Of a stretch of DNA of 64,000 nt, positions 1,639 to 61,593 are shown piece by piece. The position numbers were made by a program, and so were the translations under genes. How positions within the stretch are numbered: position 1 is the first letter of the stretch; each line of letters opens with the position of its first letter. Location of the stretch: sequence record LC494302.1; one strand, 5' to 3'. Origin of the DNA: Escherichia phage SP27. Under the pieces are notes generated by a model. It saw nothing but the letters and a program-made list of their open reading frames with translations. It made no database searches and had not been told where the DNA came from.

Positions 1639-1782
1639 ATGCCAGTACGTAACAGTACTTCACGCTTTACGCTTCAACAGAAAGCAGATCTTTTGAATAT
1701 GGCAAACAAAGATTCTAATTTTCACTATCTAGTACTCGGTGGTTCAGTTGAAAAGATTGACCTACGTGAGTGTATGAAATAA
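1639..1782 (+). CDS. small hypothetical protein (47 aa)
   Basis: ATG 5 nt after AAGGAG; fills gap not covered by the 60-aa ORF track. Confidence 0.5.
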   Translation: MPVRNSTSRFTLQQKADLLNMANKDSNFHYLVLGGSVEKIDLRECMK

Positions 1783-1796
1783 CAAAAGGGGCTAAA

Positions 1797-1967
1797 ATGA
1801 GTTTACGTGAATCATGGGAACAATTTAAAGAAGAGATTGGTTATCGTGGTGTTAAGATTGAACCAATCAATCGTACTGAAAGCATCAAAGCTAGTACTAA
1901 TGGTACTACCTATGATCGTTATGATGAAAAGTATGGTTTACATTCTAAACCAAAGGATACTGAGTAA
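1797..1967 (+). CDS. small hypothetical protein (56 aa)
   Basis: Internal ATG of tracked ORF 1770..1967, preceded by AAGGGG. Confidence 0.5.
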   Translation: MSLRESWEQFKEEIGYRGVKIEPINRTESIKASTNGTTYDRYDEKYGLHSKPKDTE

Positions 1968-2110
1968 TGGTGTATACTAATATTTTTACTGGTATTATGC
2001 GTAAATTTATTAATGGTACTGGATACGTATCTAATGACAACGGTAGTACATGGGTAAAAAATAATACGTCTGAATCTTTAGTAAAAAGTCTTCCGTATTA
2101 TAAAGCTTGA
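1967..2110 (+). CDS. small hypothetical protein (47 aa)
   Basis: TAATG coupling; own translation MVYTNIFTGIMRKF...; below track threshold. Confidence 0.45.
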   Translation: MVYTNIFTGIMRKFINGTGYVSNDNGSTWVKNNTSESLVKSLPYYKA

Positions 2111-2135
2111 CACATGAAAATGGAGTATGTATAAT
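2107..2135 (+). promoter_or_regulatory. sigma70-like early promoter
   Basis: TTGACA-17 nt-TATAAT, 33 nt upstream of gene 2168. Confidence 0.6.
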
Positions 2136-2167
2136 ACTCCTATATTAATTAAACGAGGATATACGAA

Positions 2168-2740
2168 ATGGCTGGTGTTGATAAAATTTGTGAATTCAGT
2201 TCAGATTATGAAGGTTACGAAATGTACAAGTCCAAGCGTAATCACATCCAAGTACTGTCAAAGTACCGTAAAGAATTCAGAGGCCACAAAGCAACATTGT
2301 ATGTTTTTGAGAATGGATATTCTGAAGTTTTCACAAGTGGTGGGTACAGTACAGCTAACATGGCACATATCAACCCAAACCCAACTGAAGATGATTGGAA
2401 TAGTGGTAACGCTTTTCGTATTTCAATTTTGAATAAAATGAATCGTTACGACCGTTATTGTACATTCTTTGAAAATATTTCAGAATACAAGCAAGCATTA
2501 AAGAAATATAATCAACGCTTACTAATGAATTATGATTACATTCTTCATGTGCCAACTGTTCCAGGTCAGGTTAATGGTCTGTATACGAATAGTACACATG
2601 ATTTAACTGCGGTGAAGCGTCGCCTCAAACGTATGTTGGGTTGTCGTAATTTAACAATCAAGGTTGTGCGTAATGAATCAATGTATAACTTTTTAGATGT
2701 ACTACACTACACATTGAAGGATAATAATGGAAACGATTAA
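2168..2740 (+). CDS. hypothetical protein
   Basis: 190-aa ORF, GAGGA SD; overlapping ORF 2127..2432 judged spurious. Confidence 0.7.
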   Translation: MAGVDKICEFSSDYEGYEMYKSKRNHIQVLSKYRKEFRGHKATLYVFENGYSEVFTSGGYSTANMAHINPNPTEDDWNSGNAFRISILNKMNRYDRYCTFFENISEYKQALKKYNQRLLMNYDYILHVPTVPGQVNGLYTNSTHDLTAVKRRLKRMLGCRNLTIKVVRNESMYNFLDVLHYTLKDNNGND

Positions 2741-2924: not shown

Positions 2925-3757
2925 TTATGTCATTAGAAAAAATAATCATTTCTGAATTCCGAAAGTATATCATGGATTGTGATAGAGATGTACAGCGTAA
3001 GTTCAATGAGTACCTTGACAAATATCCGTATTTGATGTTTAATCCGTTTGAAACTGATGATGATTTATATCTTGGTTTTTACATAGGATTTACTCAACGA
3101 ATTCTTCATAAAGATGAAATGAAACAATCTGAGATTTGGGTAGAAACTGACTCATCCGAGTCTAATGTTTTTTATCTTTATACATATTATGCCGAAATTG
3201 TTAGAGATACGACACCTGATGGTTGTCTATTTGTACAATCTTCTGATATTGAAAGAATATATATCGAACCTGTATCTTTAGATATGGTTGCACAGCTTCC
3301 AACTATCCAACAGTTAGGTGCAGACGAATTAACTTATTCTGTATTTGAATATCTAGGTAGAGATGATTTGACTCAAGAAATTGATAAAATGGTTTCTAAA
3401 TATACTTCATCACTTATTTCGAATGGTAAACTTAAATTAGAACTAATTTTTGAAGATACTAGTATTAATCCAGTAAGAGGGGTTACAATTGGAAAAGTTA
3501 CCATACGTGTTGTTTACGATAATGAAGTACTAGGATATATTTCAAAACGTGGACATGATTTATGTATAATTAGTACATTCGTTATTTCTCGTAAAAAATG
3601 GAATGATTTAATGCAAAAAATCGTGGACGGCAGTAAAATTCGTGATATAATATGTAATGACATGGTAATTATGAATCCTGATGTTGACTGTGATGTATAT
3701 TTTCCAGTTCCTGGATTTACACGAGAAAACTTTAGTAAATTGAAGGATACGAAATGA
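2921..3757 (+). CDS. hypothetical protein
   Basis: 278-aa ORF, ATGA-type overlap. Confidence 0.7.
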   Translation: MIMSLEKIIISEFRKYIMDCDRDVQRKFNEYLDKYPYLMFNPFETDDDLYLGFYIGFTQRILHKDEMKQSEIWVETDSSESNVFYLYTYYAEIVRDTTPDGCLFVQSSDIERIYIEPVSLDMVAQLPTIQQLGADELTYSVFEYLGRDDLTQEIDKMVSKYTSSLISNGKLKLELIFEDTSINPVRGVTIGKVTIRVVYDNEVLGYISKRGHDLCIISTFVISRKKWNDLMQKIVDGSKIRDIICNDMVIMNPDVDCDVYFPVPGFTRENFSKLKDTK

Positions 3758-4605: not shown

Positions 4606-4634
4606 TTGGACAAGAACAGATATTGTGATATAAT
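4606..4634 (+). promoter_or_regulatory. sigma70-like promoter with extended -10
   Basis: TTGGAC-17 nt-TATAAT with TGA just upstream of the -10. Confidence 0.55.
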
Positions 4635-9262: not shown

Positions 9263-9391
<129 letters not shown>

Positions 9392-9837: not shown

Positions 9838-10247
<410 letters not shown>

Positions 10248-10251
<4 letters not shown>

Positions 10252-10275
10252 CTAAATAATTCAGTACTGAGGATA
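10248..10275 (+). promoter_or_regulatory. degenerate copy of the 9839/10318 promoter
   Basis: TTGACTAAATAATTCAGTACTG conserved, -10 replaced by GAGGATATT; followed by a 9-codon mini-ORF. Confidence 0.35.
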
Positions 10276-10308
10276 TTAATATGTTTAAAGATGAACGTCC
10301 AGATTTGT

Positions 10309-10346
<38 letters not shown>

Positions 10347-10349
10347 GAA

Positions 10350-10691
10350 TTCCACAATCAGACGTATATGGTGTAAGTTACGTCGATGCAATCCAGAACA
10401 AGATCTCTGGTACTCTAGGAAGTGGTGAATGTTAACCTAGACGGGTTTGATAATTGGACGATAGGCAATTATTACTTGACTAGCAGGTTGAAACTAGAGG
10501 TGACAGTCCTTCACCAAACTGGAAAACCGGATGGACTTTTATTTAAAAGGGTAAGGCGTGGAAATATGTTTACAGAAGTTGCTTTTAGTAGCCTGTACGC
10601 CCCACGTCAAGGTAGCCGAAAGGCAAGTTAAAACGGATGGTTATAAAGCTGAATTAACAGCGGCGTTTAAAAGCGTCACCATCCATTTTTT
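10350..10691 (+). ncRNA. candidate structured RNA (alternative: 69-aa GTG-start ORF 10422..10631)
   Basis: GC-elevated, between promoter 10318 and hairpin GGATGGT..ACCATCC+T7; several stems incl. GCC-GAAA-GGC; no good SD for the ORF. Confidence 0.3.
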
Positions 10692-10708: not shown

Positions 10709-11473
<765 letters not shown>

Positions 11474-20510: not shown

Positions 20511-20986
20511 TGTTAACAATAGTGTTGTTGGTAAGTCCATTTGTGTATTTTGTGCTGTATAATATTTTTAGTAATGCTAATCATTTTAAATATGCACAAA
20601 CAATTGCAAAGCATGAAGGTTTTTGGAATTTTTTCCCAGCATTACTATGCTCATATCTATACCATGAACGCTATTTCATTTTTCCTGAATATAAAAATTA
20701 TGGTTATGATTCTAAAGTAAATGGTATAATTGAGTACTGTATAAGAAATTATCTTAATAATAATGATAACGTCCAAGTAAGAATAGGAAATGGTAATATA
20801 TCAAGAATAGTTTTCATACCTGATATACAAGATCCAATATACTTATATCCATATGATTATAGTATTAGTGTAGGTTGTTCGATACATGGTAGTAAATCTA
20901 TGTACGATTACTTTATCTTACCACCAACACAAATTAGATTAATAGAAAAATATTTGAGGGAAAAGTTTGACAACAAAGATTCTTAG
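20510..20986 (+). CDS. membrane-anchored hypothetical protein
   Basis: 158 aa, TGATG coupling, N-terminal TM. Confidence 0.6.
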   Translation: MLTIVLLVSPFVYFVLYNIFSNANHFKYAQTIAKHEGFWNFFPALLCSYLYHERYFIFPEYKNYGYDSKVNGIIEYCIRNYLNNNDNVQVRIGNGNISRIVFIPDIQDPIYLYPYDYSISVGCSIHGSKSMYDYFILPPTQIRLIEKYLREKFDNKDS

Positions 20987-21027
20987 TATTATAATTAACA
21001 CACCAAGTAACCCAAGGGGGATGGAAA

Positions 21028-21910: not shown

Positions 21911-22332
21911 GAGGCTATAATAAGATTTGTATTTTTGTATTTTTAGTTTGTGCATTCAATTCGTTTGGTTACTACTGTACAGAAAATAATATTTCATATG
22001 GTTTAAATCCTTTGTGGTTTACAATTTCCAATGTAGCACAAATTGGTATTGCTCTTATGTCTGCACTTATGTTCTGTCCAATTGTCACTATGGATACGGA
22101 TCATGAAAGGCTTGGATTTCTCCGTGATACTGGAGACGAACCTTACAGTAGATTGATTGTGTTGTATCCATTTATTGTTATTTTAGGTACTAACATCCAA
22201 CTTGGGTCATTATCTAATAGTGTTACATCAGCAGCTATTGCTATATTTGCATTCACATTTTTTATGGTACACAAATCAGTACTTAATTGGTATATCACAA
22301 AAATGGCAGAAGAAGGTACTAAAAATACTTGA
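21907..22332 (+). CDS. multi-pass membrane protein
   Basis: 141 aa, ATGA coupling, ~4 hydrophobic helices. Confidence 0.65.
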   Translation: MRGYNKICIFVFLVCAFNSFGYYCTENNISYGLNPLWFTISNVAQIGIALMSALMFCPIVTMDTDHERLGFLRDTGDEPYSRLIVLYPFIVILGTNIQLGSLSNSVTSAAIAIFAFTFFMVHKSVLNWYITKMAEEGTKNT

Positions 22333-22357
22333 CATAATTTAGTATGTTATATATAAT
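22329..22357 (+). promoter_or_regulatory. sigma70-like early promoter
   Basis: TTGACA-17 nt-TATAAT overlapping stop of 21907..22332. Confidence 0.65.
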
Positions 22358-22391
22358 TATTTTGTTAAAAACAAATTAGAGTAAGGAACTT

Positions 22392-22643
22392 ATGAACATC
22401 GATACGGTCAAAGAACTTAGTGCTGCACTAATTAAGAATGAAGAAGTTTGTGAAGAACTTCGCAGTACTATCAAAGTTGAGTACGCACGACTCCAAGGTA
22501 TGCTTCAAGAATCAGAATGGGTAGTAACTAAATCTATCGAAGCAATCTATAAGGATATCGAATCCCTTTTCAACAAGAAAAGTAAGATTGAATCTGATTC
22601 ATATAACAAACGTAAAGAGTTATCTACTGCACTTGGTATCTAA
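22392..22643 (+). CDS. hypothetical protein
   Basis: 83 aa, AAGGAA SD. Confidence 0.65.
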   Translation: MNIDTVKELSAALIKNEEVCEELRSTIKVEYARLQGMLQESEWVVTKSIEAIYKDIESLFNKKSKIESDSYNKRKELSTALGI

Positions 22644-22649
22644 AAGTAT

Positions 22650-22678
22650 TTGACATAACAAATAATATGGAGTACAAT
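22650..22678 (+). promoter_or_regulatory. sigma70-like early promoter
   Basis: TTGACA-17 nt-TACAAT. Confidence 0.65.
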
Positions 22679-22717
22679 GTGCTCCTAATTTAATTATCAG
22701 CTAGAAAGGAAAACATT

Positions 22718-22978
22718 ATGAAATCTATTCTCGTTGCAGTTAACCTAGTTGCTTCCCCATCTTTCAACTTCAAACAAGTGGTTGCTGATAATCTGAAGAA
22801 GATCTGTCCAAACGCTGAATTAACTTTCTGTGTGTTTGATTCAGAAAAAGTAACTAAAGTTGATCTAAACTATCTTTTGAACGAAGTAAAAAGCGTTTCT
22901 GGTGAAAGTAACTTAAAAGTTCTTCATGATATTGCTGATGATTATGATGATACACTTGTAATTTCGGAGAAATTCTAA
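22718..22978 (+). CDS. hypothetical protein
   Basis: 86 aa, AAAGGAAA SD. Confidence 0.65.
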   Translation: MKSILVAVNLVASPSFNFKQVVADNLKKICPNAELTFCVFDSEKVTKVDLNYLLNEVKSVSGESNLKVLHDIADDYDDTLVISEKF

Positions 22979-22983
22979 ATAAA

Positions 22984-23403
22984 ATGTTTAGATTTCTTCA
23001 GTACTTAATCATTAAATTTTTTGGCTATTATACGATTGAAGGCAAAGCTACACTCGCACATAGAATCTTTGTAGCATTATGTACGGGTGATTATGACGTA
23101 TTGAATAAGTACTGTAAATCTAAAGCATGTATTGATATAATGGCACTTCGTATCTATGAGTGCCGTTCCAATAGATACAATTTTTACCAATACAGATTTG
23201 ATGAAAAAGAATTTGATAGCATCAAAATGCTTAAGAATTTATGTAACAATAAAAAGAATATGCATATATCAGAATTTGTTGCTTTGTATTTTTATTTAAA
23301 AAGTTCATTGTATATGAACACAATGCAAAGATTCGATACTAGAATTAATGTATTCACCGATAAAGAATTTTATATATACGATAAATTCTTAGATAAGGTT
23401 TAA
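22984..23403 (+). CDS. hypothetical protein
   Basis: 139-aa ORF, weak SD. Confidence 0.55.
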   Translation: MFRFLQYLIIKFFGYYTIEGKATLAHRIFVALCTGDYDVLNKYCKSKACIDIMALRIYECRSNRYNFYQYRFDEKEFDSIKMLKNLCNNKKNMHISEFVALYFYLKSSLYMNTMQRFDTRINVFTDKEFYIYDKFLDKV

Positions 23404-23404
23404 T

Positions 23405-23902
23405 ATGACAACTGTTTATATTGATAAACGATTAAATTTATTGATTACCGATTCTAGAGTTACGTCAACTATACCACGAAACTTATTTGGTTTTTTCCCA
23501 CTAAGACCAAAATATCAATATGGAGTTGTTAATCAAAAAACTTTATATGTACATGACCGTTTATTCAGTGCTAGTGGGGTAGTAAGTGAAATTGATAAAG
23601 TACTGGATTGGTTAATTAATAAAGTACCAGTTATACCTGACAGAAAGTTAAGTTGCCATTGTGTGCTTCTTTCTAAAGATTATGTTATTCATATGATTTT
23701 AACTAAAGGAAAGTTTATTAAAAAACTTGAATATCTACATGAAGACTACACTTTCTTTATGGGAAGTGGTGGAGAATACATGCTAGATGCTGCTATTCAT
23801 GAAGAACATACAACTTTATATGATAAAGTGTTTAGTACTTTCATGGATGTGCACAACCATGATTGCTTCACAGATGATAATATTAATGTATATCGATTTT
23901 GA
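23405..23902 (+). CDS. possible HslV/proteasome-beta-like Ntn hydrolase
   Basis: Starts MTT (Thr after Met), later FMGSGGEYM resembles HslV GSGG motif; similar size (165 aa); weak by-eye similarity only. Confidence 0.5.
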   Translation: MTTVYIDKRLNLLITDSRVTSTIPRNLFGFFPLRPKYQYGVVNQKTLYVHDRLFSASGVVSEIDKVLDWLINKVPVIPDRKLSCHCVLLSKDYVIHMILTKGKFIKKLEYLHEDYTFFMGSGGEYMLDAAIHEEHTTLYDKVFSTFMDVHNHDCFTDDNINVYRF

Positions 23903-23923
23903 TTTCGTCATTAGGAGATGTAA

Positions 23924-24889
23924 GTGAAAAAGCTTGATTTAAATACAATTGCCGAAGAAGTTCTGGATGAATGTTTTGCTAATGAAGAAGTCAACACACT
24001 AGAAGCCTTAGATTTCGTTGAAGATAAAGATGATAATGAAGGTAAAGTACAAAGCAGTTTCAAATATAATATTACACTTAAGCGACCACCAAATGTTTCC
24101 AATGAAGATCTAATTCGTGATATTCAAGCTGGTATCAATGTAAAGAAAAACACTGAACTGTTAGTTCGTTACAATTATGGACTGATTATTGATGTAGCAA
24201 GTAAATGTACTTGTTATATCCCATTTGAAGATAAGATTTCATATGGTGTTGAGGGGTTCATGAGAGCACTAAAAACCTTTGATCTTAATAAGAATGTTAA
24301 GTTCATTACCTATGCTTCTTCTAGTATTTACATGACAGTCTATAACGAAAGTTCTGACGCTAACTATATGGTACACTTCCCACGTTATATGAGTGTTCAT
24401 AAGATCAAAGTAAAAAGATTCTGCCAGGAATATATGCGTAAACATGGTGTTCGCCCAACACCTGAAATAATCTCAGAGGGTACTGGGATTGAGATTCAGC
24501 ATGTTAATAATTGTTTATTATTTCAAAGCGAATACACTTCACTGGATGCACCATTAGACGGTGTTACAGATGGTACATTAGGTGACATTATTCATTCACC
24601 TGCTTCTGATTTTAACCTCAATGTTGATAGTATCCGTGCACCTTTACGTTATGCTATCAATGAACTGACTAACGAATTGAGTACTAAAGAACGTGAGATT
24701 ATCCAGCGTGTTCATGGTCTAGGTGAATATGAACCTGAAACGCTTCGTGAGATTGCTGATAATGGTTTTGTTGATGATAATGGAAAATATGTTAAATCCC
24801 GTTCATCAATACACCGAAAGTACAGTGAAGCTATGCAAAAGCTTAAGAAGTTAGTACTTGCAAAAGGGTACGAATACGAAGATTTCTAA
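23924..24889 (+). CDS. sigma-70 family RNA polymerase sigma factor
   Basis: 321 aa; region-2-like YNYGLIIDVASK...EGFMRALKTFD...FITYASSSIY, region-4-like LSTKEREIIQRVHGLG...TLREIAD; GTG start behind AGGAG. Confidence 0.8.
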   Translation: MKKLDLNTIAEEVLDECFANEEVNTLEALDFVEDKDDNEGKVQSSFKYNITLKRPPNVSNEDLIRDIQAGINVKKNTELLVRYNYGLIIDVASKCTCYIPFEDKISYGVEGFMRALKTFDLNKNVKFITYASSSIYMTVYNESSDANYMVHFPRYMSVHKIKVKRFCQEYMRKHGVRPTPEIISEGTGIEIQHVNNCLLFQSEYTSLDAPLDGVTDGTLGDIIHSPASDFNLNVDSIRAPLRYAINELTNELSTKEREIIQRVHGLGEYEPETLREIADNGFVDDNGKYVKSRSSIHRKYSEAMQKLKKLVLAKGYEYEDF

Positions 24890-24897
24890 AGAACAAG

Positions 24898-24923
24898 GGT
24901 TGGCTTATGCCAACCTTTTTTTT
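24898..24923 (+). terminator. intrinsic terminator of sigma gene
   Basis: GGTTGGC-TTAT-GCCAACC then T8. Confidence 0.75.
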
Positions 24924-24944
24924 ATGGGATGAAGTAAAAGTTTG

Positions 24945-24953
24945 TGATATAAT
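24945..24953 (+). promoter_or_regulatory. extended -10 promoter candidate
   Basis: TGATATAAT, no clear -35; precedes ORF-free structured region. Confidence 0.4.
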
Positions 24954-24959
24954 TATCTT

Positions 24960-25445
24960 GTACAATTCTGTTGGCATGATATTCATGTACCTGATCCACT
25001 CGAAAACGTAGAGGGCAGTTGAGCAGTCCGACAGTGCGAACAGCAAAAGAAACCCGTTAGATGTGGGCATAGTTTGAACCCCTCACGGCAATGCGGCTGT
25101 ATAAAGAACCACGTTAGGATAGCTGGTGGTTCCTTGATAGACATATAAGGATAACACCTTACGAATTATCTAAGGGAGAGTTATCGAATTTTGTACAGGA
25201 AAGTTGCGTCCAAAATTTGAGTACTCACATTAAGTATTTGATTGCATAGATACTTAATGAAGATACACTATGTTTAAAAGTGTAGACCGTCATATGAAAC
25301 TGAAGTAGAGAGAAACAGGATGACCCGCTTTCGCACTCGTTATGAGTAATCTTCAATGCAATAGCTCTGATACCATCAGCGTCAAATTTCCCTCCTTGTG
25401 GGGGGAAGAAAAATCCCTTCCTCAAATCCCGTCAATATTAAAAGT
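24960..25445 (+). ncRNA. candidate large structured RNA (about 480 nt, class unknown; strand uncertain)
   Basis: Stops in all plus frames, GC higher than flanks, many nested stems (GAACCAC/GTGGTTC, GATAAC[CCTTA..TAAGG]GTTATC, TAAGTAT/ATACTTA, TTCCCTCC/GGGGGGAA). Confidence 0.35.
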
Positions 25446-25447
25446 CC

Positions 25448-25476
25448 TTGACAGTTATTAATCATTCGCGTAGAAT
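25448..25476 (+). promoter_or_regulatory. sigma70-like promoter
   Basis: TTGACA-17 nt-TAGAAT; drives 25541-26767 operon. Confidence 0.65.
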
Positions 25477-25540
25477 ACGTAGTATTAGAAGCGAACAGAC
25501 ATCTCGAAGAGATGGATGATTAACCATTAAGGAATATCAA

Positions 25541-25750
25541 ATGAATTCAGTAATCTTTTTAGTAGTCGCTTTCTCTGTTAATTCCGGTGTACAAATAACC
25601 CCAATGAATTCCATGAATCAATGCATAGCAGTACGTGATAGTACATACGAACAAGTAAACAAAGATATTTGGATTACAGTTAGTAAAGAACAAATGTGGT
25701 GTTACAATAGTAATACTAACACAAAGCTTATTGTAGGACAAACTCAATGA
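25541..25750 (+). CDS. small secreted/anchored protein
   Basis: 69 aa, AAGGAA SD, hydrophobic N-terminus. Confidence 0.55.
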   Translation: MNSVIFLVVAFSVNSGVQITPMNSMNQCIAVRDSTYEQVNKDIWITVSKEQMWCYNSNTNTKLIVGQTQ

Positions 25751-25977
25751 GTTATGGCGTTCGTTTTGAGATTCGTTCTATTGTCATCAATGCAGAGAAA
25801 CAAGTATCGTTGGATGGTGATATACGTGAAATTTATCTATCATGTATCCGTGCGAAATCTGAAGCAGATGCCTTAGTACAAATGTATAGTTTTAACTTTT
25901 CAAATGGATTCTATTTGGTACGAGTTATTGAAGTGAAAAAAGTACTTATTGGTTGTAGCATAGAAGGATTAATGTAA
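25747..25977 (+). CDS. small protein, SExDAL family
   Basis: ATGA coupling; IRAKSEADALVQMY resembles 30024 IRALSEVDALFKLF. Confidence 0.55.
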   Translation: MSYGVRFEIRSIVINAEKQVSLDGDIREIYLSCIRAKSEADALVQMYSFNFSNGFYLVRVIEVKKVLIGCSIEGLM

Positions 25978-25978
25978 A

Positions 25979-26767
25979 ATGAGCACTATAGATGAACTGA
26001 TTCGACGGAATTCAAAATATTACCAACCATCAGAAATTGTAGGTAACATTACCAAATCAGAGTTTGGTCCAAATACTCGAAAACTCATTCATGTAATGTC
26101 ACGTGATGGCTTTAAATGTGATTGTTGCGGTGAATCTAATGTAGTATTCACTTTACACAAGCACAGTACTAAAGATCGTTATAAATTCAGACCTTATGTA
26201 CTTAAAGGGAAACGCCTTGTACGCATGACGTTAGACCATAATGTACTGGACTGTCTTCAGGGCGGTAATGATAAAGAGAACATGACTGCACTGTGTGAAG
26301 ATTGTAACGCATTACGCCAGCATAAGTTTGCTGAATACAGTGAGTTTAAACACTGGTATCATAACGCGGATCGTTCAATCGAGCCTGACGTTAACTACTG
26401 CTTCATTGAGTACATTAAGAATGCCAAAGATACATACATTCTTAAATCAATGTCACCTATTACCGTGTTTCCTGAGAACCTATTCACTACATTAAAGAAT
26501 AGTTTTATTGTAGGTGATATTGATGCATTCAAGTATTTTGACAAAGGTGCAAAACATTTTGAAATTCAATGTCTTAGTACTGCACTATGTGAACTCATTA
26601 AAATTTACATAAAAGAGTATTTGGGTATTGACAATGTACGTGTACCAGAGTATACTTTTTCTATTGAATTCGATTGTGAATCAATCAAAGAGTTTGGAAT
26701 TCTTTTCAATAAACAAATAGAACTTGCAATTCAAAACGAAATCAAGTACTATACTACTAACATTTAA
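25979..26767 (+). CDS. HNH endonuclease (free-standing)
   Basis: CDCCG...TLDHNVLDCLQGGNDKENMTALCEDCNALRQ = Cys pairs plus H-N-N of the beta-beta-alpha-Me fold in the N-terminal half. Confidence 0.8.
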   Translation: MSTIDELIRRNSKYYQPSEIVGNITKSEFGPNTRKLIHVMSRDGFKCDCCGESNVVFTLHKHSTKDRYKFRPYVLKGKRLVRMTLDHNVLDCLQGGNDKENMTALCEDCNALRQHKFAEYSEFKHWYHNADRSIEPDVNYCFIEYIKNAKDTYILKSMSPITVFPENLFTTLKNSFIVGDIDAFKYFDKGAKHFEIQCLSTALCELIKIYIKEYLGIDNVRVPEYTFSIEFDCESIKEFGILFNKQIELAIQNEIKYYTTNI

Positions 26768-26782
26768 TCAGAGGAAATTATC

Positions 26783-26965
26783 ATGCAAATTATCATTCTT
26801 ATCGTTGGCATCATGCTGGGTGTTTACGGTCACTCCTGGATGAACGAGAAGTTTCCTAATACGCGTCCTGAGTATTGCAGTTCTAATGTATTCCAGAATG
26901 GTGAGAAACCAAAGGAAAGCATTGGTAAAAAGCTGGATAAAGTACTTGATGTGATCAATGAATAA
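26783..26965 (+). CDS. small membrane-anchored protein
   Basis: 60 aa, AGAGGAAA SD, N-terminal TM. Confidence 0.55.
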   Translation: MQIIILIVGIMLGVYGHSWMNEKFPNTRPEYCSSNVFQNGEKPKESIGKKLDKVLDVINE

Positions 26966-26975
26966 GGGCCATAAA

Positions 26976-27176
26976 ATGTTTAAACCGAATTCCAATGTTG
27001 GTAAGAAAGTTCAATTACTTGAAGATGTATCCACCATGAGTGGAATTTTCCCAAGAGGTCACATCATGACTATTATTGCCGAAACATCCCGTGGGTGGGA
27101 TTTGGAAGATGCTGATGGTAATCGCATCCTTGAGGCTGGATTCTATGGTCATCGTGAATATAAAATCGTTGATTAA
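26976..27176 (+). CDS. hypothetical protein
   Basis: Trimmed to ATG 26976 behind AAGGG; 26958 also possible. Confidence 0.55.
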   Translation: MFKPNSNVGKKVQLLEDVSTMSGIFPRGHIMTIIAETSRGWDLEDADGNRILEAGFYGHREYKIVD

Positions 27177-27272: not shown

Positions 27273-27300
27273 TTGACATAAGATATCAGTACTGTATAAT
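27273..27300 (+). promoter_or_regulatory. early promoter with CAGTACTG dyad in spacer
   Basis: TTGACA-taagataTCAGTACTG-TATAAT. Confidence 0.65.
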
Positions 27301-31371: not shown

Positions 31372-31604
31372 TACTAAGTTTTGTTGTTGCACTATTGTTT
31401 ATGTTCTATCCTACACTAGTGGCATTAGCCACTAGACGAACGATGGTAGATCTCACTACTGTATTCTTGCTAAACGTGGCATTAGTACTGGTGTCTATTA
31501 TCATTCCAGTGAGCTTTACAGTTATTGATATTATTTCGGTATTACTCTTCGTGTTAAGTTATCTTATGCTTATTGAAGAAACAAATGTTGACAAACGTTC
31601 GTAG
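31362..31604 (+). CDS. small membrane protein
   Basis: 80 aa, 2-3 TM helices. Confidence 0.6.
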   Translation: MYLVLSFVVALLFMFYPTLVALATRRTMVDLTTVFLLNVALVLVSIIIPVSFTVIDIISVLLFVLSYLMLIEETNVDKRS

Positions 31605-31615
31605 TACTGTATAAT
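31588..31615 (+). promoter_or_regulatory. early promoter with TAGTACTG in spacer
   Basis: TTGACA-16 nt-TATAAT embedded in 3' end of 31362..31604. Confidence 0.6.
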
Positions 31616-33192: not shown

Positions 33193-33364
33193 TAATATTC
33201 GTGTTATGCAGCATCCCTACTTACAAATCTTTGATGTGCAGCAGTATATGGAAGGTGATGACCCAAGAACCTATGGTCGTAAGTATGATTACTTCACTGT
33301 AAAGCAGTGTAAAAATATTAACGAAGTACGACAATTAGTTCAAGAACTTCAAAACAAAGGTTGA
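33173..33364 (+). CDS. hypothetical protein
   Basis: Tracked GTG ORF trimmed to ATG 33173 behind AAGGA; stop TGA lies in the TTGAC of the next cassette. Confidence 0.5.
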   Translation: MLIYQSDNIRVMQHPYLQIFDVQQYMEGDDPRTYGRKYDYFTVKQCKNINEVRQLVQELQNKG

Positions 33365-33390
33365 CTTCGGTCAGCCTTTTTTGTTATAAT
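33359..33390 (+). promoter_or_regulatory. fused terminator/early-promoter cassette (-35 inside hairpin)
   Basis: GGTTGAC-TTCG-GTCAGCC, T6, then TATAAT 18 nt after TTGACT. Confidence 0.7.
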
Positions 33391-36102: not shown

Positions 36103-36131
36103 TGGGACAACCATTCTTATTATGATATAAT
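36103..36131 (+). promoter_or_regulatory. sigma70-like promoter with extended -10
   Basis: TGGGAC-17 nt-TATAAT preceded by TGA. Confidence 0.55.
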
Positions 36132-36210
36132 GTTTTATGTCATTCGATATAAATGACAAACGGAACTATAAATATTATAGTAAAATTTATCTCTTATAGG
36201 AGTTATAAAA

Positions 36211-36600: not shown

Positions 36601-36633
36601 GGGTTGACTAAGGTCAGCCCTTTGTTGTATCAT
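36601..36633 (+). promoter_or_regulatory. fused terminator/early-promoter cassette
   Basis: GGGTTGAC-TAAG-GTCAGCCC, TTTGTTG, TATCAT 18 nt after TTGACT. Confidence 0.65.
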
Positions 36634-36784: not shown

Positions 36785-36822
36785 GGTTGACTTCGGTCAG
36801 CCTTTTCTTTATACTATAAATA
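36785..36822 (+). promoter_or_regulatory. fused terminator/early-promoter cassette plus TATAAATA late-type box
   Basis: GGTTGAC-TTCG-GTCAGCC, TTGACT-17-TATACT, then TATAAATA at 36815-36822. Confidence 0.6.
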
Positions 36823-39212: not shown

Positions 39213-39244
39213 GGTTGACTTCGGTCAGCCTTTTTTGTTATGAT
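39213..39244 (+). promoter_or_regulatory. fused terminator/early-promoter cassette
   Basis: GGTTGAC-TTCG-GTCAGCC, T6, TATGAT 18 nt after TTGACT. Confidence 0.65.
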
Positions 39245-39272
39245 GTTGATATTAACTACAGAGGATAAAGTA

Positions 39273-39914
39273 ATGACTAAGCAAGAAATATTCAAAACTT
39301 TAATTGACATTTTGCGTCCATCAAAAACTCGTTGTGCGATGGAGTTTGATATTCCTTATGCTGAACGCGTAATCTTTCCACAAGTTAAAGCTGCTGGACT
39401 TACTTTGCTTGGAATGGGGATGTACTCTGTAGTAGTTGAACATAAAAACTATCCTGGACGAGCATTTAAAGTAACCACTTCACGCTGGGATGGTTTTCGT
39501 GCTTATGCAAAGTACTGCATTGAAAACGCAGGAACCAAGTTTCTTCCAGTGATCTACAGTGCCAACGAACAAGGAAACTTTGGATGGTATGAGATGGACA
39601 AGTACTATCCTATAATTAAACAAAAAAATAATTATGATGACTTTGTTAGTACTAAAATTGGAGATTTATATTCTTATGCACATGCTGGTCAGTACGCTAC
39701 TTCAGTGAATGATATGCGTGGAAATTCTGAAGAGATTGCTATTGCGACGGTCGCTGCTAACATCATGAAAGAGTTTCACGGGCGTTTTGTACCAGACATT
39801 CATTCAAGTAATGTAATGATGGATAAAGATGGGAATGTATTCATTACTGATCCTCTTTCGTGTGATGTGCGTAGAGAAATACCAATTACTGAAGAAGATC
39901 CAGTTTTTTATTGA
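39273..39914 (+). CDS. protein-kinase-like fold protein (APH/LPS-kinase type)
   Basis: Trimmed to ATG 39273 (downstream of cassette -10); RAFKV lysine, catalytic DIHSSNVMMDKDGNVFITDP resembles D-L-H-x-G-N ... I-D. Confidence 0.6.
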   Translation: MTKQEIFKTLIDILRPSKTRCAMEFDIPYAERVIFPQVKAAGLTLLGMGMYSVVVEHKNYPGRAFKVTTSRWDGFRAYAKYCIENAGTKFLPVIYSANEQGNFGWYEMDKYYPIIKQKNNYDDFVSTKIGDLYSYAHAGQYATSVNDMRGNSEEIAIATVAANIMKEFHGRFVPDIHSSNVMMDKDGNVFITDPLSCDVRREIPITEEDPVFY

Positions 39915-41940: not shown

Positions 41941-41998
41941 TTGACAAACACATTCAGTACTGTATAATGTTTATCAAGGGGATGAACTTCTCATCCCC
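41941..41998 (+). promoter_or_regulatory. early promoter with CAGTACTG dyad followed by stem-loop
   Basis: TTGACA-aacacatTCAGTACTG-TATAAT, then GGGGATGA-ACTTC-TCATCCCC. Confidence 0.6.
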
Positions 41999-42015
41999 AC
42001 AATCGAGGAATTGTC

Positions 42016-42570
42016 ATGATTACTTTTAAGAAAACTGCTAACCACATCCATGAAATCTACATTAACGGTCACAAAGCTGGCCTTCTTCGTTTACTCGCCC
42101 ATCACCCTGATGCTACCGTATCTGATAATGAACCTAAAGATTGGCGTGTCTTTTTCTTTGGAAAGTACAGTGATTTTCAAGTATCAAACCTGAAGAACAT
42201 TCGTTCAGTATGCACGTTAACTGAAATTAAAGAAAAGTTAGCACAAGCATTGAAAACTAATCCAGATGGTGTTCTTCCACCTGATAACTTTGTAGAGAAA
42301 GGTTATGCCTTAGCTCATTTCAAAGATGGTACTATTCAATCTATCAGTACTGAATATGAATATCATTGGACTGAGTACTTCACTTATGGTTCGAGTAATA
42401 CATTGATGGATTCACGTAGTAAATTGGAAGAAGTACTGACTCGTATGAATGAACGCGAGCGTCAGTTATATGACAAACCAGAAATGTGGAGTTCAACTTA
42501 CATTGACCGTATTGACTATGTTATTATGACTCCAATCTTTGACACTGCTTACTATGATTCTTTGAAATAA
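42016..42570 (+). CDS. hypothetical protein
   Basis: 184 aa, GAGGAA SD. Confidence 0.65.
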   Translation: MITFKKTANHIHEIYINGHKAGLLRLLAHHPDATVSDNEPKDWRVFFFGKYSDFQVSNLKNIRSVCTLTEIKEKLAQALKTNPDGVLPPDNFVEKGYALAHFKDGTIQSISTEYEYHWTEYFTYGSSNTLMDSRSKLEEVLTRMNERERQLYDKPEMWSSTYIDRIDYVIMTPIFDTAYYDSLK

Positions 42571-43706: not shown

Positions 43707-43739
43707 GGGTTGACTACGGTCAGCCCTTTTTGCTATAAT
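43707..43739 (+). promoter_or_regulatory. fused terminator/early-promoter cassette
   Basis: GGGTTGAC-TACG-GTCAGCCC, T5, TATAAT 18 nt after TTGACT. Confidence 0.7.
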
Positions 43740-44988: not shown

Positions 44989-45021
44989 GGGTTGACTTCG
45001 GTCAGCCCTTTTTGCTATAAT
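44989..45021 (+). promoter_or_regulatory. fused terminator/early-promoter cassette
   Basis: GGGTTGAC-TTCG-GTCAGCCC, T5, TATAAT; almost identical to 43707 copy. Confidence 0.7.
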
Positions 45022-49849: not shown

Positions 49850-51019
49850 CTAAGCAGAAGGCATATCCTTCATCTTAATAAATGAAAATTGTGTACCAGT
49901 ATTTGTGGTTTGATCAGTAAAATATGAATTACTACCAGCCCAGTACAATTCATTATTAACTATACAATATATAACAGAACTCGAACTCTGTGAATACACA
50001 CGACTTATATTTGATGGTTCTACTCCAGTACTGAACTGAACCGAACCCAACTGTGAACTTGGTATCACATCAGTTGGTCTACCTAAACCATTAACACCAG
50101 CCCCACCACCACATGTATATACCCCAGTACTATCAGTTGATATATTAACATAACCATTTCCAGCATTTTCAAATAGTATTTCACTGGGAACAACACCAAA
50201 TCCTGTAAGATCTATTTTCCTGAATGTAGTATAAACCGTAGAACCGCCAACACCTCTTCCACCATAATCATTAGAACCAGCCATATAGATACTATATCCA
50301 GAACTTCCTAAACATAATAACTGTACGTTGTCATATAATATTTGCATAGATATAACGTTATCAGGAATACTCAATACCGTAAAAGTAGTTAAAGAAGAAC
50401 TTCCAATATTACTACCAACCGATGTTCCACATCTGTAGTACTTACCGCCCTTTATATAATGGAATGATGAACCACCTAATTTATGTGCTCCTATTGCACT
50501 TACCTCAGTATCTATGAGAATGGGAGATACAACTTTGTTATTAACACCTAACTCAGATCTACTGTTCATACCGAACCCATATAAACGACCATCTAACATC
50601 AATATTAGTGTACTACCTGATGTACCCGCTGATGTAAATTCTATATTCTTTATCTGTGACACGTCAATACCTACAAATAATGAAGTTACTTCAGTCCAGT
50701 TAACATATGAACCACTAGCCCCAAAATATCCACCCATGTATAGTCCGGCACAATATAACTTATTATCAACCGTCTTTATTAATGTACCGGATACACACGC
50801 CCAAAAATCATCAACTTCATAGGGTACATGTACCCAACCACCTAATACATCACTATCATTCCCTGTTCCTAATTTGTAGTTCGATCCAGAACCACGCATA
50901 TACATATTCCCTGTACTATAAAGTAATCCGACATGTAATTGACTACCATCCAATTTCTTTATTTCGGGAAGAGTTGGTTTAATATTTCCGTACTTTAACA
51001 TTCTTCCAAAAGGTAACAT
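49850..51019 (-). CDS. RCC1-like repeat protein with MLPF tag
   Basis: Trimmed to MLPFGRMLKYGNIKP; blades with GSNYKLGTGN, GMNSRSELGVNN. Confidence 0.8.
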   Translation of the reverse strand: MLPFGRMLKYGNIKPTLPEIKKLDGSQLHVGLLYSTGNMYMRGSGSNYKLGTGNDSDVLGGWVHVPYEVDDFWACVSGTLIKTVDNKLYCAGLYMGGYFGASGSYVNWTEVTSLFVGIDVSQIKNIEFTSAGTSGSTLILMLDGRLYGFGMNSRSELGVNNKVVSPILIDTEVSAIGAHKLGGSSFHYIKGGKYYRCGTSVGSNIGSSSLTTFTVLSIPDNVISMQILYDNVQLLCLGSSGYSIYMAGSNDYGGRGVGGSTVYTTFRKIDLTGFGVVPSEILFENAGNGYVNISTDSTGVYTCGGGAGVNGLGRPTDVIPSSQLGSVQFSTGVEPSNISRVYSQSSSSVIYCIVNNELYWAGSNSYFTDQTTNTGTQFSFIKMKDMPSA

Positions 51020-51097
51020 AATTCCTCCTTTATTCATTATACTATATTTAATACAAATAAGAAAGCCAGTACAAAGTACTGGCATAGTTTTATAGTA
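51020..51097 (-). promoter_or_regulatory. array cassette (hairpin terminator + late-type promoter + SD)
   Basis: Minus: GCCAGTAC-TTT-GTACTGGC, TTTCTTATTTGTATTAAATATAGTATAATGAATAAAGGAGGAATT-ATG. Confidence 0.7.
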
Positions 51098-52207
51098 TTA
51101 TTTCGGCATTGTAATTGCAGACCATGAGTTCGTGGTAATAGGACCTGGTACATACAAAAAAGAACCACAAGCATAAATTTGATTATTACCATCAAATACT
51201 ATACTAAAATGTGCACATGTGTATAATGATGATTTTTCTGGGTTGTAATTATCTAAAGTTAGTGTATTGGTGAATCTACTCAAACCACCTCCCGAACCAT
51301 TTCTACCAAATTCACCAGTACTGTATATCTTTCCTTCGGTTGTTGCGTACATATTAACATATGAAGTCGCACTTGATTTTGATATTTTATGTATCTTACT
51401 ATCAATAGTAGTGGAGTTAAATGCAAATGGATATACTTGTGTGTTCGTTGTAATACCGTTACCAAGTTGACCAATATACTGCCAACCTGCGTTGTATATA
51501 TTGCTGGCTGAATAAGCAAGAGTACCAGTACTGTTACCACCAAATAGTTTAACACTTGTTAACCTGCTTACTAGTGTAGTATACTGTCCTGGACTTACGC
51601 CAAGTGAACCATACCCACTGCTCCCGCAACCGAGAAGTTCATTATTTGATGTTAATATTAATGTGTTATTCTGTGTACCCAATATATCAAGAACTGTATT
51701 AGCTCCGGTATTAATAACTGAAACAAAAGTACTCTGAGCCGTGGAATACCCACCACCGAGTGAATAGTTACCATTCATGCCTCTACCATAAACAATCGAA
51801 CCACTAGCATCAACGTAGTGCATTGTATCTGCACCAATTGATATCATTTTAATATTAGATATATGTGGAAATGAAGAAGTAACATTCAAACCACCCAACG
51901 GAATCATAGTATTTCCTGTGCCTAATTGTGTGGTAACTCCATGCATTATGAATTCTTCACCCTTGAGATAAAGAATATTGTACGCACCAGCCCATGCATC
52001 AGTAACACCTTCTGAAATTAATATCCAAGTATTTCTTGTTGCTGTATTTTCAACGTTTAACTGCAAATACGTATTAACCCCACAACCATAAAGTGAGCCA
52101 TCGCCATAGAGGACGTACAAATTATCAAGACCGCACAGTACTTTCTTTATCTTTGGAGCTTCAGGTGCAATATTTCCGTACTTAACCATTCTAGCAAAAG
52201 GTAACAT
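51098..52207 (-). CDS. RCC1-like repeat protein with MLPF tag
   Basis: MLPFARMVKYGNIAP; GSSGYGSLGV, IGQLGNGI; SD directly after upstream stop (no cassette). Confidence 0.8.
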   Translation of the reverse strand: MLPFARMVKYGNIAPEAPKIKKVLCGLDNLYVLYGDGSLYGCGVNTYLQLNVENTATRNTWILISEGVTDAWAGAYNILYLKGEEFIMHGVTTQLGTGNTMIPLGGLNVTSSFPHISNIKMISIGADTMHYVDASGSIVYGRGMNGNYSLGGGYSTAQSTFVSVINTGANTVLDILGTQNNTLILTSNNELLGCGSSGYGSLGVSPGQYTTLVSRLTSVKLFGGNSTGTLAYSASNIYNAGWQYIGQLGNGITTNTQVYPFAFNSTTIDSKIHKISKSSATSYVNMYATTEGKIYSTGEFGRNGSGGGLSRFTNTLTLDNYNPEKSSLYTCAHFSIVFDGNNQIYACGSFLYVPGPITTNSWSAITMPK

Positions 52208-52217
52208 AAATTCCTCC

Positions 52218-53397
52218 TTAAATTTGTGGCAATTGGTATTCAGTTAAAGTCCATGTACCAACAACTGTCCCTACTGGAGACATACCAGTGTAGTATAATT
52301 TCCCATTCACATATGCAAATAATGCATTGTCATTCGCAGCAACCAACGATGTTGACGGATCATAAACTACAGAATTTGGAAATTGTGCTTGGACGAAAAT
52401 TGAAGCATTATTAGATGAATTGTTACCAAGCTGTCCATAATTATTATACCCTGTTCCAAAAATACGACTTCCATTTCTATATAATAATCCCCTAGGATTT
52501 TGTGAATATGTTTGTATAAATTCAAAATCGGAAACATTAGTTAATTGTAAATAAGTACTTTGTGGCGTTAAAGATATCTTATTAGTATTAGATAGAACAC
52601 CATTTCCTAATTGTCCGTGAATTTTGTGACCCTACACCATATAGCGGATAAGTATTATCTACATTAAGAACTATACCCAACATATTGTTATATGAAATTA
52701 TATCAACGGGGTACTGGCCTGTAGGAAAACTATACTTTGTCCAACTCGTCAAAGTATCAGTAGCAGAACCAGTTAACAATGTACCAGTACTAGTTTTACC
52801 ACATCGCCATACTGAATTATCATTTTTAATTATCCAAGTCGGACTATTGAAAAATGAACTAACCTTTTTAACATTAATATTAACCTGTGTAAATGATGTA
52901 AGTGTAGATGAACTACTACCCAACTCATAGGTCGAATTATCACCTATTGCGTAAAGAACACTATCATTTGTTAGTAAAAACATATTACGAACATTTGGAT
53001 ATATCTCCTTGATATTATCCACATTAAAACCTGAAAAATAAGACGTACAATCAACAAATGTAGTACTTTGAACTGCACTAGATGTACCAGTCCAAAGGTT
53101 CCAACCTGCATAATAAAATTTATTATCATTGGTCTGAACTAAGCTATATGAAGCATTCCTTGTGCACCAAAAATTTTTCACATTTTGCATTAAGCGAACC
53201 CATTTGGTCTGTGTCGTTGTATTTCCAAGACCGAATATACCAGCATTGTTACCGCCAATACCCCACAAATCACCGTTCTTATACAGAATCATCAATGTGT
53301 TGTTGGTAAAAGCCGATGGTGCTTGCATTTTAATTACACTAGATTCATATATAGGTGCTATATTCCCGTACTTAACCATTCTTGCAAAAGGTAACAT
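52218..53397 (-). pseudogene. RCC1-like paralog interrupted by a +1 frameshift
   Basis: Frame A MLPFARMVKYGNIAP... stops at 52588; +1 frame continues HGQLGNG...GYNNYGQLGNNS... to TAA 52218; shift near A4 run 52622-52625. Confidence 0.6.
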
Positions 53398-53505
53398 AAA
53401 TCCCTCCTTTATTCATTATACTATATTTAATACAAAAAGAAATGCCAGTATCAAGTACTGGCATTATGTTAATTAATAGTGTCTTTCTAAACACATTTCG
53501 TGCCT
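53398..53505 (-). promoter_or_regulatory. array cassette (longer copy)
   Basis: Same hairpin/promoter/SD plus ~37 extra nt after upstream stop. Confidence 0.7.
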
Positions 53506-54681: not shown

Positions 54682-54753
54682 AAATTCCTCCTTTATTCAT
54701 TATACTATATTTAATACAAAAAGAAATGCCAGTACTTGAGTACTGGCTTTATG
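54682..54753 (-). promoter_or_regulatory. array cassette
   Basis: GCCAGTACT-CA-AGTACTGGC hairpin, conserved promoter/SD block. Confidence 0.7.
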
Positions 54754-55905: not shown

Positions 55906-55977
55906 AATTCCCCTCCTTATTCATTATACTATATTTAATACAAATAAGAAAGCCAGTATCAAGTACTGGCCTATATT
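55906..55977 (-). promoter_or_regulatory. array cassette
   Basis: Conserved hairpin/promoter/SD block. Confidence 0.7.
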
Positions 55978-56715: not shown

Positions 56716-56786
56716 ACTTCCTCCTTTATTCATTATACTATATTTAATACAAATAAGAAAGCCAGTACTCAGTACTGGCTATTATA
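56716..56786 (-). promoter_or_regulatory. array cassette
   Basis: Conserved hairpin/promoter/SD block. Confidence 0.7.
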
Positions 56787-57974: not shown

Positions 57975-58045
57975 AAATTCCTCCTTTATTCATTATACTA
58001 TATTTAATACAAATAAGAAAGCCAGTATCAAGTACTGGCATTAAA
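57975..58045 (-). promoter_or_regulatory. array cassette
   Basis: Conserved hairpin/promoter/SD block. Confidence 0.7.
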
Positions 58046-59194: not shown

Positions 59195-59265
59195 ATTTCC
59201 CTCCTTTATTCATTATACTATATTTAATACAAATAAGAAAGCCAGTACAGTGTACTGGCATTATA
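59195..59265 (-). promoter_or_regulatory. array cassette
   Basis: Conserved hairpin/promoter/SD block. Confidence 0.7.
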
Positions 59266-60405: not shown

Positions 60406-60475
60406 ATTCCCTCCTTTATTTGTTATACTATATTTAATACAAATAAGAAAGCCAGTACTCTGTACTGGCATTATG
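60406..60475 (-). promoter_or_regulatory. array cassette
   Basis: Conserved hairpin/promoter/SD block. Confidence 0.7.
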
Positions 60476-61585: not shown

Positions 61586-61593
61586 ATTCCCTC

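Follow-up and report, generated by a model that had tools for sequence, protein, structure and literature searches.

Which promoters a sigma-70-family factor might read in a phage that otherwise looks T4-like is the question raised by one gene of Escherichia phage SP27, which lies at 23924-24889 on the + strand of the 64,000-nt stretch of record LC494302.1 analysed here (the window). The window belongs to an Asteriusvirus-type jumbo coliphage, being 99.4% identical to phage JP4 over 22000-27000 and 98% identical to 121Q and PBECO4; outside this region it is mosaic relative to JP4, with most of it 99% identical. Homologs of gp23, gp20, gp43, gp46/47, UvsX/W, RNaseH and gp55 in the near-identical JP4 and in RaK2 bear out the T4-type signatures noted in the initial annotation. 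Judging from promoter architecture and from the comparison of relatives, we consider it probable that the factor is a middle-gene sigma directing the host polymerase to a separate promoter class, termed class M below. This promoter assignment is new, while the gene itself is not: it has already been annotated in 121Q/RaK2-type giant phages and carries the label "RNA polymerase sigma factor" in >20 records, the annotated orthologs being 121Q gp167, RaK2 ORF244, CBB_513, Sharanji RpoD (WNN14470) and the corresponding genes of PBECO4, phAPEC6 and GAP32.

The open reading frame (ORF) had been described as a 321-aa sigma-70-family protein with regions 2 and 4; its limits proved exact, all comparisons agreed on the family, and region 3 can be added. 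It begins with GTG, 6 nt after an AGGAG read from the sequence as the ribosome-binding site (RBS; 23913-23917, +), and this start is supported because the N-terminus MKKLDLN... is kept in the orthologs of all lineages. Among the Pfam models, Sigma70_r3 scored above its gathering threshold (E=2e-9, 37.8 bits vs 25.3), while Sigma70_r4 (E=3e-5, 23.8 vs 24.1 bits, spanning the first half of sigma4 only) and Sigma70_r2 (E=7e-5, 23.0 vs 24.0 bits) fell just short, by less than one bit and by one bit at most, respectively. PHROG 351, "RNA polymerase sigma factor", matched with E=2e-60, and NCBIfam gave RpoD_Cterm with E=6e-25, the cut-off being exceeded only for the generic sigma-70 superfamily model TIGR02937. 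Sigma chains in the PDB matched to E=7e-17, with ORF residues 74-279 corresponding to E. coli sigma70 373-578, and in the sigma2 part the NCBIfam and PDB alignments span sigma70 373-456. The AlphaFold2 (AF2) model has sigma2, sigma3 and sigma4 blocks at a predicted local distance difference test (pLDDT) of 80-90, with residues 1-49 and 223-235 disordered, and Foldseek searches with it returned sigma factors only (sigmaS/sigmaA chains, probability 1.0). By Pfam, NCBIfam, PHROG 351, PDB and AF2/Foldseek alike, the ORF encodes a genuine sigma-70-family protein.

The acidic N-terminus ascribed to the protein is likewise real: aa 1-50 (23924-24073, +) contain 14 D/E vs 5 K/R, giving a net charge of -9, and aa 1-23 (MKKLDLNxIxxEVLDECF) are conserved family-wide despite predicted disorder; this region is possibly a functional analogue of region 1.1. 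The Sigma2 domain (aa 59-146, 24098-24361, +) keeps the core-binding helix of region 2.2, with the motif D-x-I-x-x-G-x-x-G-x-M-x-A and invariant G108, G111 and A115. The Sigma3 domain (aa 154-199, 24383-24520, +), seen by Pfam, PDB, alignment and AF2, is followed by the region 3.2 "finger" (24542-24592, +), and the phage segment LDAPLDGVTDGTLGDII aligns to METPIGDDEDSHLGDFI of sigma70 in this sigma3/region 3.2 part. The Sigma4 domain (aa 234-314, 24623-24865, +) is complete in the AF2 model at pLDDT 84-89. In the turn of its region-4.2 helix-turn-helix (HTH) sits a 12-residue segment, NGFVDDNGKYVK (24761-24796, +), which is modelled as a beta-hairpin with pLDDT ~85 and exceeds the GKQFDV of sigma70 by about 7-9 residues; the family is marked by its motif G-(F/Y/L)-x-D-x-x-G-K. 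The recognition helix SRSSIHRKYSEAMQKLKK (24797-24850, +) comes directly after, with RSSIHRK where sigma70 has RERIRQI.

Most residues with which sigma70 reads promoters are replaced in the phage factor. Relative to E. coli sigma70, W433S, W434S, R436Y, Q437M and T440Y are found in region 2.3-2.4 (24296-24358, +), H455Y and E458V in region 3.0 ahead of Sigma3 (24374-24400, +), and E585S, R588H and Q589R in the recognition helix, so that among the residues tested only Y430 and R584 are retained. None of the 18 representatives of the family has the W433/W434 dyad. Variation within this otherwise conserved family is greatest in the recognition helix, which is what co-evolving specificity would lead one to expect. 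For these comparisons the length and eleven landmark residues of the sigma70 sequence were verified, and the helix was aligned via MAFFT and by hand; a MAFFT alignment with distant orthologs, which placed the sigma70 helix on the insertion, was discarded in favour of the alignment to sigma70 and the hand alignment.

The factor had also been called "full-length", which holds for the succession sigma2-sigma3-sigma4 and not for the rest: Pfam regions 1.1 (PF03979) and 1.2 (PF00140) have no match at E<=1, the non-conserved region is absent, and all RpoD/RpoS equivalog cut-offs are missed by a wide margin (RpoD_Cterm 88 vs 354 bits; PRK05658 64 vs 555). Domains, scores and promoter-reading residues thus all separate it from group 1 primary sigmas, and it has neither the homology nor the gp47/gp46 synteny of T4 gp55, the sigma2-4 models matching instead. 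With sigma2, sigma3 plus the region 3.2 linker, and sigma4 all present, it is a sigma-70 family member that is neither a group 1 RpoD equivalog nor gp55. Binding to core RNA polymerase and promoter-specific initiation are predicted for it, with indirect support from the conserved surfaces and from the promoter-class covariation described below.

An exhaustive search of 1.84 billion representatives gave 15 relatives at E<=1e-30, aligned over residues 1-320, and a score gap from 118 to 88 bits parts them from generic sigmas, whose alignments end near residue 279, before the insertion. Full-length similarity, the N-terminal MKKLxLxxIxxEVLDECF and the 4.2 insertion motif, the latter two being conserved in most members, place the factor in a RaK2/121Q-clade subfamily within PHROG 351. 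It is 99% identical to the Asteriusvirus entries and 35-44% identical to its counterparts in RaK2, GAP32 and CBB, and its position in the early region is the same among 121Q-, RaK2-, GAP32- and CBB-type orthologs. The gene was reported to be absent from phage Ecwhy_1 in the fEgEco12 paper. This absence is an annotation artefact, as the UNVERIFIED record MH791411.1 bears a misc_feature only, and the ORF is intact, full-length and GTG-started at 1662-2627 (-) of the stretch fetched from it.

Promoters were counted genome-wide in JP4, with the second copy of a ~20-kb repeat masked. The early class, TTGACA-N16-18-TATAAT, has 32 sites vs 1.4 expected, and a repeat cassette of the form CTTGCA-N16-18-TATAAT has 18 vs 0.2 expected. 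Class M, [GT][GA]GACA-N13-16-TGnTATAAT, has 19 sites vs 0.0 expected, every one of them on the coding strand. When the TG was not demanded, TGn was still found in 15/17 G[GA]GACA-N16/17-TATAAT sites vs 5/32 of the TTGACA and 0/18 of the CTTGCA sites (Fisher p=5e-9). Class M is therefore a separate promoter class, which joins the extended -10 TGnTATAAT to a lineage-specific hexamer placed 16-17 bp away, the usual distance of a -35. The genes behind it include primase, exonucleases, the DNA-polymerase region, ssb (two sites), the thymidylate-synthase operon, a protease, tRNAs and the gp55-like gene, and no further over-represented promoter class that could be the target of the sigma was found.

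Four class-M sites, all on the + strand, are recognized in the window: GGGATG-N13-TGATATAAT at 24926-24953, just past the sigma gene, with orthologous counterparts that read GGGACA in fEgEco12 and TGAACA in RaK2; GGGACA-N13-TGATATAAT at 36104-36131; the same at 9264-9291, directly 5' of a tRNA gene (9302-9388); and the class-M-like TGGACA-N13-TGATATAAT at 4607-4634. Weaker candidates are TGGACG at 3624-3651 and TGGACA with a spacer of 17 at 11089-11117.

The CTTGCA cassettes, AAAAAGTACTTGCAA-N16-TATAATGTTTTACATC-hairpin, form a block of their own outside the window: at 124.4-142 kb of JP4 there are about 20 near-identical early cassettes, and behind every one come a GC hairpin, an RBS and a small ORF. 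In the JP4 record this ~20-kb block appears twice in tandem (second copy 144.5-162 kb), which probably represents a terminal repeat assembled internally.

The evidence linking the sigma to class M comes from relatives, for which the collinear gp55-to-primase regions of XbC2, RaK2, WPEC3 (fEgEco12 lineage) and Munch (40-90 kb per relative) and the sigma genes of CBB, RaK2, Munch, XbC2 and fEgEco12 were compared. Three promoter classes, including a divergent one, have been described in the CBB paper, whose "Promoter 1" consists of TGAAAC(G)/TGGAAC(G) followed by TGnTATAAT. This is the class-M architecture with another -35, and it also stands 5' of the CBB gp55 gene; the motif TGAAACG is nearly absent from JP4 (1 site vs 5.4 expected), so that class M of JP4 had to be found de novo. 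In one register, the hexamer is GGGACA/GAGACA in JP4 (7 sites) and WPEC3 (8), GGGACA in Munch (11), TGAACA in RaK2 (4) and GAAACG/GGAACG in XbC2 (11), the last being identical to CBB. At the positions equivalent to sigma70 584/585/586/588/589, the helices R-S-S-H-R (121Q, fEgEco12) and R-T-S-H-R (Munch) pair with GGGACA, R-G-T-H-Y (RaK2) with TGAACA, and K-A-T-S-R with GAAACG in both CBB and XbC2, whose hosts differ (Pectobacterium vs Xanthomonas). Both hexamer switches coincide with changes at position 584, 588 or 589. By pairwise identity, the sigma tree is ((121Q,fEgEco12),RaK2),(Munch,(CBB,XbC2)); Munch shares GGGACA with the 121Q group though it is grouped with CBB and XbC2, so the hexamer does not track this tree. 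Across five lineages, the comparison suggests that the class-M hexamer goes with the region-4.2 recognition helix rather than with the sigma tree, which fits an aside in the initial annotation that the factor might serve some other promoter class than the one it had in mind. The early TTGAC class is unchanged between CBB and JP4.

A natural control for this pairing is offered by the PA5oct-type phages, which have a gp55 homolog (11 Pseudomonas records). No Pseudomonas record is among the listed sigma matches, leaving PA5oct without a detectable sigma70-like gene, and its orthologous gp55 promoter is host-type (TTGACT-N17-TAAAAT). The published PA5oct promoters are of the TTGAC/TATAATA form. 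In RaK2, the gp55 promoter reads TGAATA-N17-TATAAT, without TGn. Two further ideas about how the hexamer is read were dropped. An HTH regulator adjoining the sigma gene in CBB and XbC2 was rejected as a clade-wide class-M reader, as it has no homolog in JP4 or in the window, and a residue-to-base code drawn from sigma70 genetics fits CBB (H588S, G to A) and fails for RaK2, and is not claimed.

On the middle-sigma reading, infection would proceed in three steps. The host sigma70 holoenzyme would first read the TTGACA-N16/17-TATAAT early promoters, whose architecture is evident and whose timing is presumed. Three of these lie on the + strand upstream of the sigma gene: TTGACA-N17-TATAAT (12/12) at 20967-20995 and at 22329-22357, and, nearest to the gene, TTGACA-N17-TACAAT (11/12) at 22650-22678. 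The strong terminator, a 10-bp stem AAGGGTTGGC/GCCAACCTTT plus T8 (24895-24925, +), comes 6 nt past the sigma stop and ends the unit, so these promoters may well transcribe through the sigma gene up to it; the reading gains support from this arrangement, in which early-type promoters precede the gene and the first strong terminator follows shortly after it. The new sigma would then bind host core via its conserved region 2.2, 3.2 and 4 surfaces and lead it to class M, where GGGACA stands in place of TTGACA, 16 bp 5' of an obligatory TGnTATAAT, the hexamer presumably being read by the diverged 4.2 helix beside the family-specific beta-hairpin. One class-M product would be the gp55-type late sigma, which by analogy with T4 may finally read the (T)ATAAATA late promoters. 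Replacement of the sigma would thus do the job that MotA/AsiA appropriation of sigma70 does in T4. Host-type early promoters before the sigma gene and class M before replication genes and gp55, together with the covariation, fit the architecture expected if this is a middle sigma.

Several observations weigh against this reading. Class M has the classical -10 and TG signals of sigma70, whereas the residues with which sigma70 reads them are missing from the phage sigma, whose region 2.4 also varies by lineage (Y-M vs R-Q) while TATAAT stays constant. Host sigma70 can work from an extended -10 even where the -35 is poor. Three motif states in five lineages carry the covariation, and RaK2 keeps H588 though an A in its hexamer takes the place of a G in 121Q, so that a simple residue-to-base code does not apply. 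Hundreds of phage ORFs lack a known function, and any of them could be an equally covarying MotA-like reader. The genome-wide counts, moreover, come from JP4, relative to which the window is mosaic.

Because class M keeps the sigma70 extended -10 and the phage sigma is without the cognate residues, a serious rival is that host sigma70 reads class M through TGnTATAAT with a phage activator on the hexamer, in the manner of MotA/AsiA, while the phage sigma targets something else. The middle promoters of T4 have the same layout, a sigma70 -10 with an activator box for the -35, and a genome in which most ORFs have no known function leaves room for such an activator. We nevertheless regard this as unlikely, given that the PHROG-based annotation of JP4 contains no MotA or AsiA, the CBB/XbC2 HTH regulator is missing there, the hexamer stands at -35 distance and tracks the sigma's own helix better than the tree, and the promoter search left no other class to serve as the sigma's target. 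It is more doubtful still that the phage sigma substitutes for sigma70 on TTGACA/TATAAT promoters and sustains early or delayed-early transcription after host sigma70 has been inactivated: perfect-consensus promoters are unusually abundant in the window and in JP4 and the best-scoring curated models are RpoD-type, but three of the four classic -35-reading residues are altered, the HTH carries an insertion, and the helix varies between lineages where TTGACA does not. Loss of the melting dyad W433/W434 and a conserved N-terminal motif without an assigned role might instead point to a competitor or decoy with little promoter specificity, which occupies core or titrates a host factor via its acidic N-terminus and so shuts off host transcription; this seems very improbable, however, as the protein has kept sigma3 and the 3.2 finger, its sigma4 is complete and bears a basic recognition helix, and group 3 sigmas are active without the W dyad.

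The late side of the proposed programme has its own factor. The initial annotation had recommended a search for a gp55 homolog elsewhere in the genome, and one is present in JP4: JP4_CDS0688 (329940-330779, 279 aa) carries the annotation "sigma factor for late transcription", precedes SbcD/SbcC (gp47/gp46) in T4-like order, and matches in its C-terminal half the annotated gp55 of T4-like cyanophages (tblastn, E~1e-8); Pfam finds nothing in it. This protein is 69-96% identical across the clade vs 29-75% for the sigma70-like factor, and a class-M site lies directly 5' of its gene in JP4, WPEC3, Munch, XbC2 and CBB. Both sigma70-consensus promoters and TAAATA-type boxes occur in the window, as had been claimed. 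A (T)ATAAATA/TAAATA box stands 25-50 nt 5' of head, tail and baseplate genes, and in JP4 the late TATAAATA is about 4-fold depleted (15 vs 64.6 expected; ATAAATA 53 vs 224), an avoidance that suggests a real late-promoter signal. Where the gp55 and baseplate genes diverge, a class-M promoter and a reverse-strand TATAAATA stand back to back; related sites in the window are at 36167 and 36815.

It was the promoters of the RCC1-repeat gene array that the initial annotation had put forward as a possible target of the factor. In these cassettes (51038-62828, -) TAAATATAGTATA occurs 9 times, with ATgaataaaGGAGG after it in eight cases, and the order of parts is terminator hairpin, T-run, TAT-TAAATA-TAGTATAAT, RBS. 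Their TAAATA box and its spacing recur in structural-gene promoters (head, tail and baseplate), the tail-tube TAAATAAAGTATAAT being one example, and because of this shared architecture the cassettes are taken to be late-type and presumably read by a gp55-type sigma. That the phage sigma reads their TAAATA-N-TATAAT is scarcely credible, for although the TATAAT is perfect, it lies only 17 nt from the ATG, with neither a -35 nor a TG and with the terminator T-run filling the -35 region, and a gp55-type sigma, in T4 the known reader of TATAAATA, is present. The RCC1 promoters most likely belong to the gp55-type sigma and fall outside the predicted regulon of the phage sigma. As for the array itself (49850-63974, -), its copy order and sequence differ from those of JP4 (85-97% identity, rearranged blocks), and it appears to be a fast-evolving, recombining late-gene family.

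The stretch just past the sigma terminator, gene-free for ~500 nt and opened by the class-M promoter at 24926, holds what is probably the most novel element of the locus. It is 97-100% identical to fEgEco12, where the flanking coding DNA is 45-87% identical; HNH-mediated co-conversion as the cause was set aside, since identity drops to 77-87% in the ORFs that separate the element from the HNH gene. The element (24956-25440, +; core 24999-25386, closing helix 25014-25021/25374-25383) is the first copy of an unannotated ~390-nt RNA family, of which each Asteriusvirus genome has 4 copies and CBB-like phages have 5, with about 70% identity across the RaK2/121Q/CBB clade. Paralogs lie at ~201377-201930, ~255726-256250 and 334584-335100 of JP4, and further members at 42015-42500 of the Munch stretch (L017) and 10152-10650 of the XbC2 stretch (L014). 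Every JP4 copy is located behind a class-M promoter, and most copies of the family end in an intrinsic terminator. An alignment of 8 sequences gave 89 predicted pairs, 47 of them with compensatory changes, and 95.8% of its cells were paired vs 38-44% with slid partners, while 0/500 shuffles reached any of these measures. Folding of single sequences gave no significant result (z = -1.3 and -1.6), and it took comparative analysis to reveal the structure. Neither ARAGORN nor Rfam 15 (at gathering, and for three copies at E<=1 or 10) returned a relevant match, a tmRNA or a tRNA, and an invariant block of the RNA occurs only in ~350-371-kb viral contigs or their fragments. The element is a covariation-supported structured RNA, predicted to be transcribed from class M. 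The sigma, with its rapidly diversifying 4.2 helix, and its promoters may constitute a co-evolving, host-orthogonal pair, a private middle channel of RaK2/121Q-type phages (GGGACA/TGAACA/GAAACG plus extended -10) that would control gp55 and these ~390-nt RNAs as well; we hold the case for and against this broader proposition to be evenly balanced.

Among the neighbours, the gene just 5' of the sigma (23405-23902, +) encodes a weak homolog of HslV-family peptidases (PHROG 1040, E=9e-6), and the same position in fEgEco12 is held by a gene annotated HslV. PHROG and Pfam searches with ten neighbouring ORFs gave only families of unknown function and this weak HslV-like match. Farther along the same early region, at ~39268-39909 (+; JP4 90611-91252), the JP4 annotation has a T7 gp0.7-like protein kinase, "inhibitor of host transcription", which is another candidate modifier of the host RNA polymerase.

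Two repeated signals also accompany the early genes. The "dyad" cassettes AAAGGGTTGACTTCGGTCAGCCCTTTTTGcTATAAT (+; 33361-33390, 36604-36633, 36787-36815, 39215-39244, 43710-43739 and 44992-45021) have a TTGAC -35 within the 5' arm of a UUCG-loop terminator hairpin, whose T-run is the spacer of a consensus promoter; with this layout, one signal would both terminate transcription and start it anew between early genes. In addition, the palindrome-like CAGTACTG or AGTACT is present in many early-promoter spacers just before the -10, for example at 9839-9866, 10318-10346, 27273-27300, 31588-31615 and 41941-41968, and also 5' of -35 elements (AAAGTAC-TTGAC) and in the RCC1 terminator stems at 52-63 kb (GCCAGTACTTGATACTGGC), and could be a regulator or modification site.

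If the proposal is right, jumbo phages of the 121Q/RaK2/CBB type would pass through early, middle and late phases as T4 does, yet would switch to the middle phase by replacing the sigma instead of appropriating sigma70, and the sigma would be the likely regulator of the adjoining structured RNA family. The helix variants and their matching -35 hexamers would provide a ready system for the evolution of sigma region 4 specificity and a source of orthogonal sigma/promoter pairs working with E. coli core polymerase, while gene timing in poorly annotated 350-kb phages that are therapeutic candidates could be classified from sequence alone.

Earlier work on the clade has dealt mainly with the presence of the gene. 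Iyer et al. described RpoD-like and minimal sigmas as typical of group 2 jumbo phages, a group of which the sigma gene is a hallmark according to the Sharanji paper, and the CBB paper placed CBB_513 among the early genes and reported a gp55-like sigma. In the clade literature searched, no cognate promoter, helix/-35 covariation, HTH insertion or experiment is reported for this sigma, and the RaK2, phAPEC6, Sharanji, fEgEco12, PA5oct and Paride papers give no functional data on it. The closest matches in sequence and structure are the group 1 and 2 sigmas sigma70 (RpoD) and sigmaS (RpoS), with which the phage factor shares the sigma2-4 folds, regions 2.2 and 3.2, Y430 and R584; unlike sigma70, it has no Pfam match for region 1.1/1.2, no non-conserved region and no dyad, and bears a beta-hairpin in the 4.2 HTH. 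Proven phage sigmas acting on enterobacterial core RNA polymerase are gp36 of phiEco32 and gp47 of Salmonella phage 7-11, each with its own consensus, and their difference in specificity has been attributed to region 4. Those phages are small podoviruses with ECF-like, very divergent sigmas, whose promoters, tAATGTAtA (a single element) or GTAAtg-16-aCTA, drive middle/late or late genes.

In function, the proposed role resembles that of gp28 of SPO1. That middle sigma is made from early host-sigma promoters and replaces the host primary sigma, with gp33/gp34 acting late. SPO1 middle promoters differ from those of the host in both -35 and -10, whereas class M keeps a host-like -10, and the late factor here is of the T4 gp55 type, syntenic with gp47/gp46 in JP4 as in T4. 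T4 gp55 has 185 aa, compared with the 279 aa of its JP4 homolog. T4 itself encodes no sigma2-4 factor and remodels host sigma70, and MotA/AsiA are missing from the JP4 annotation; the logic is nevertheless alike in that the middle promoter combines a host-like -10 with a phage element replacing the -35.

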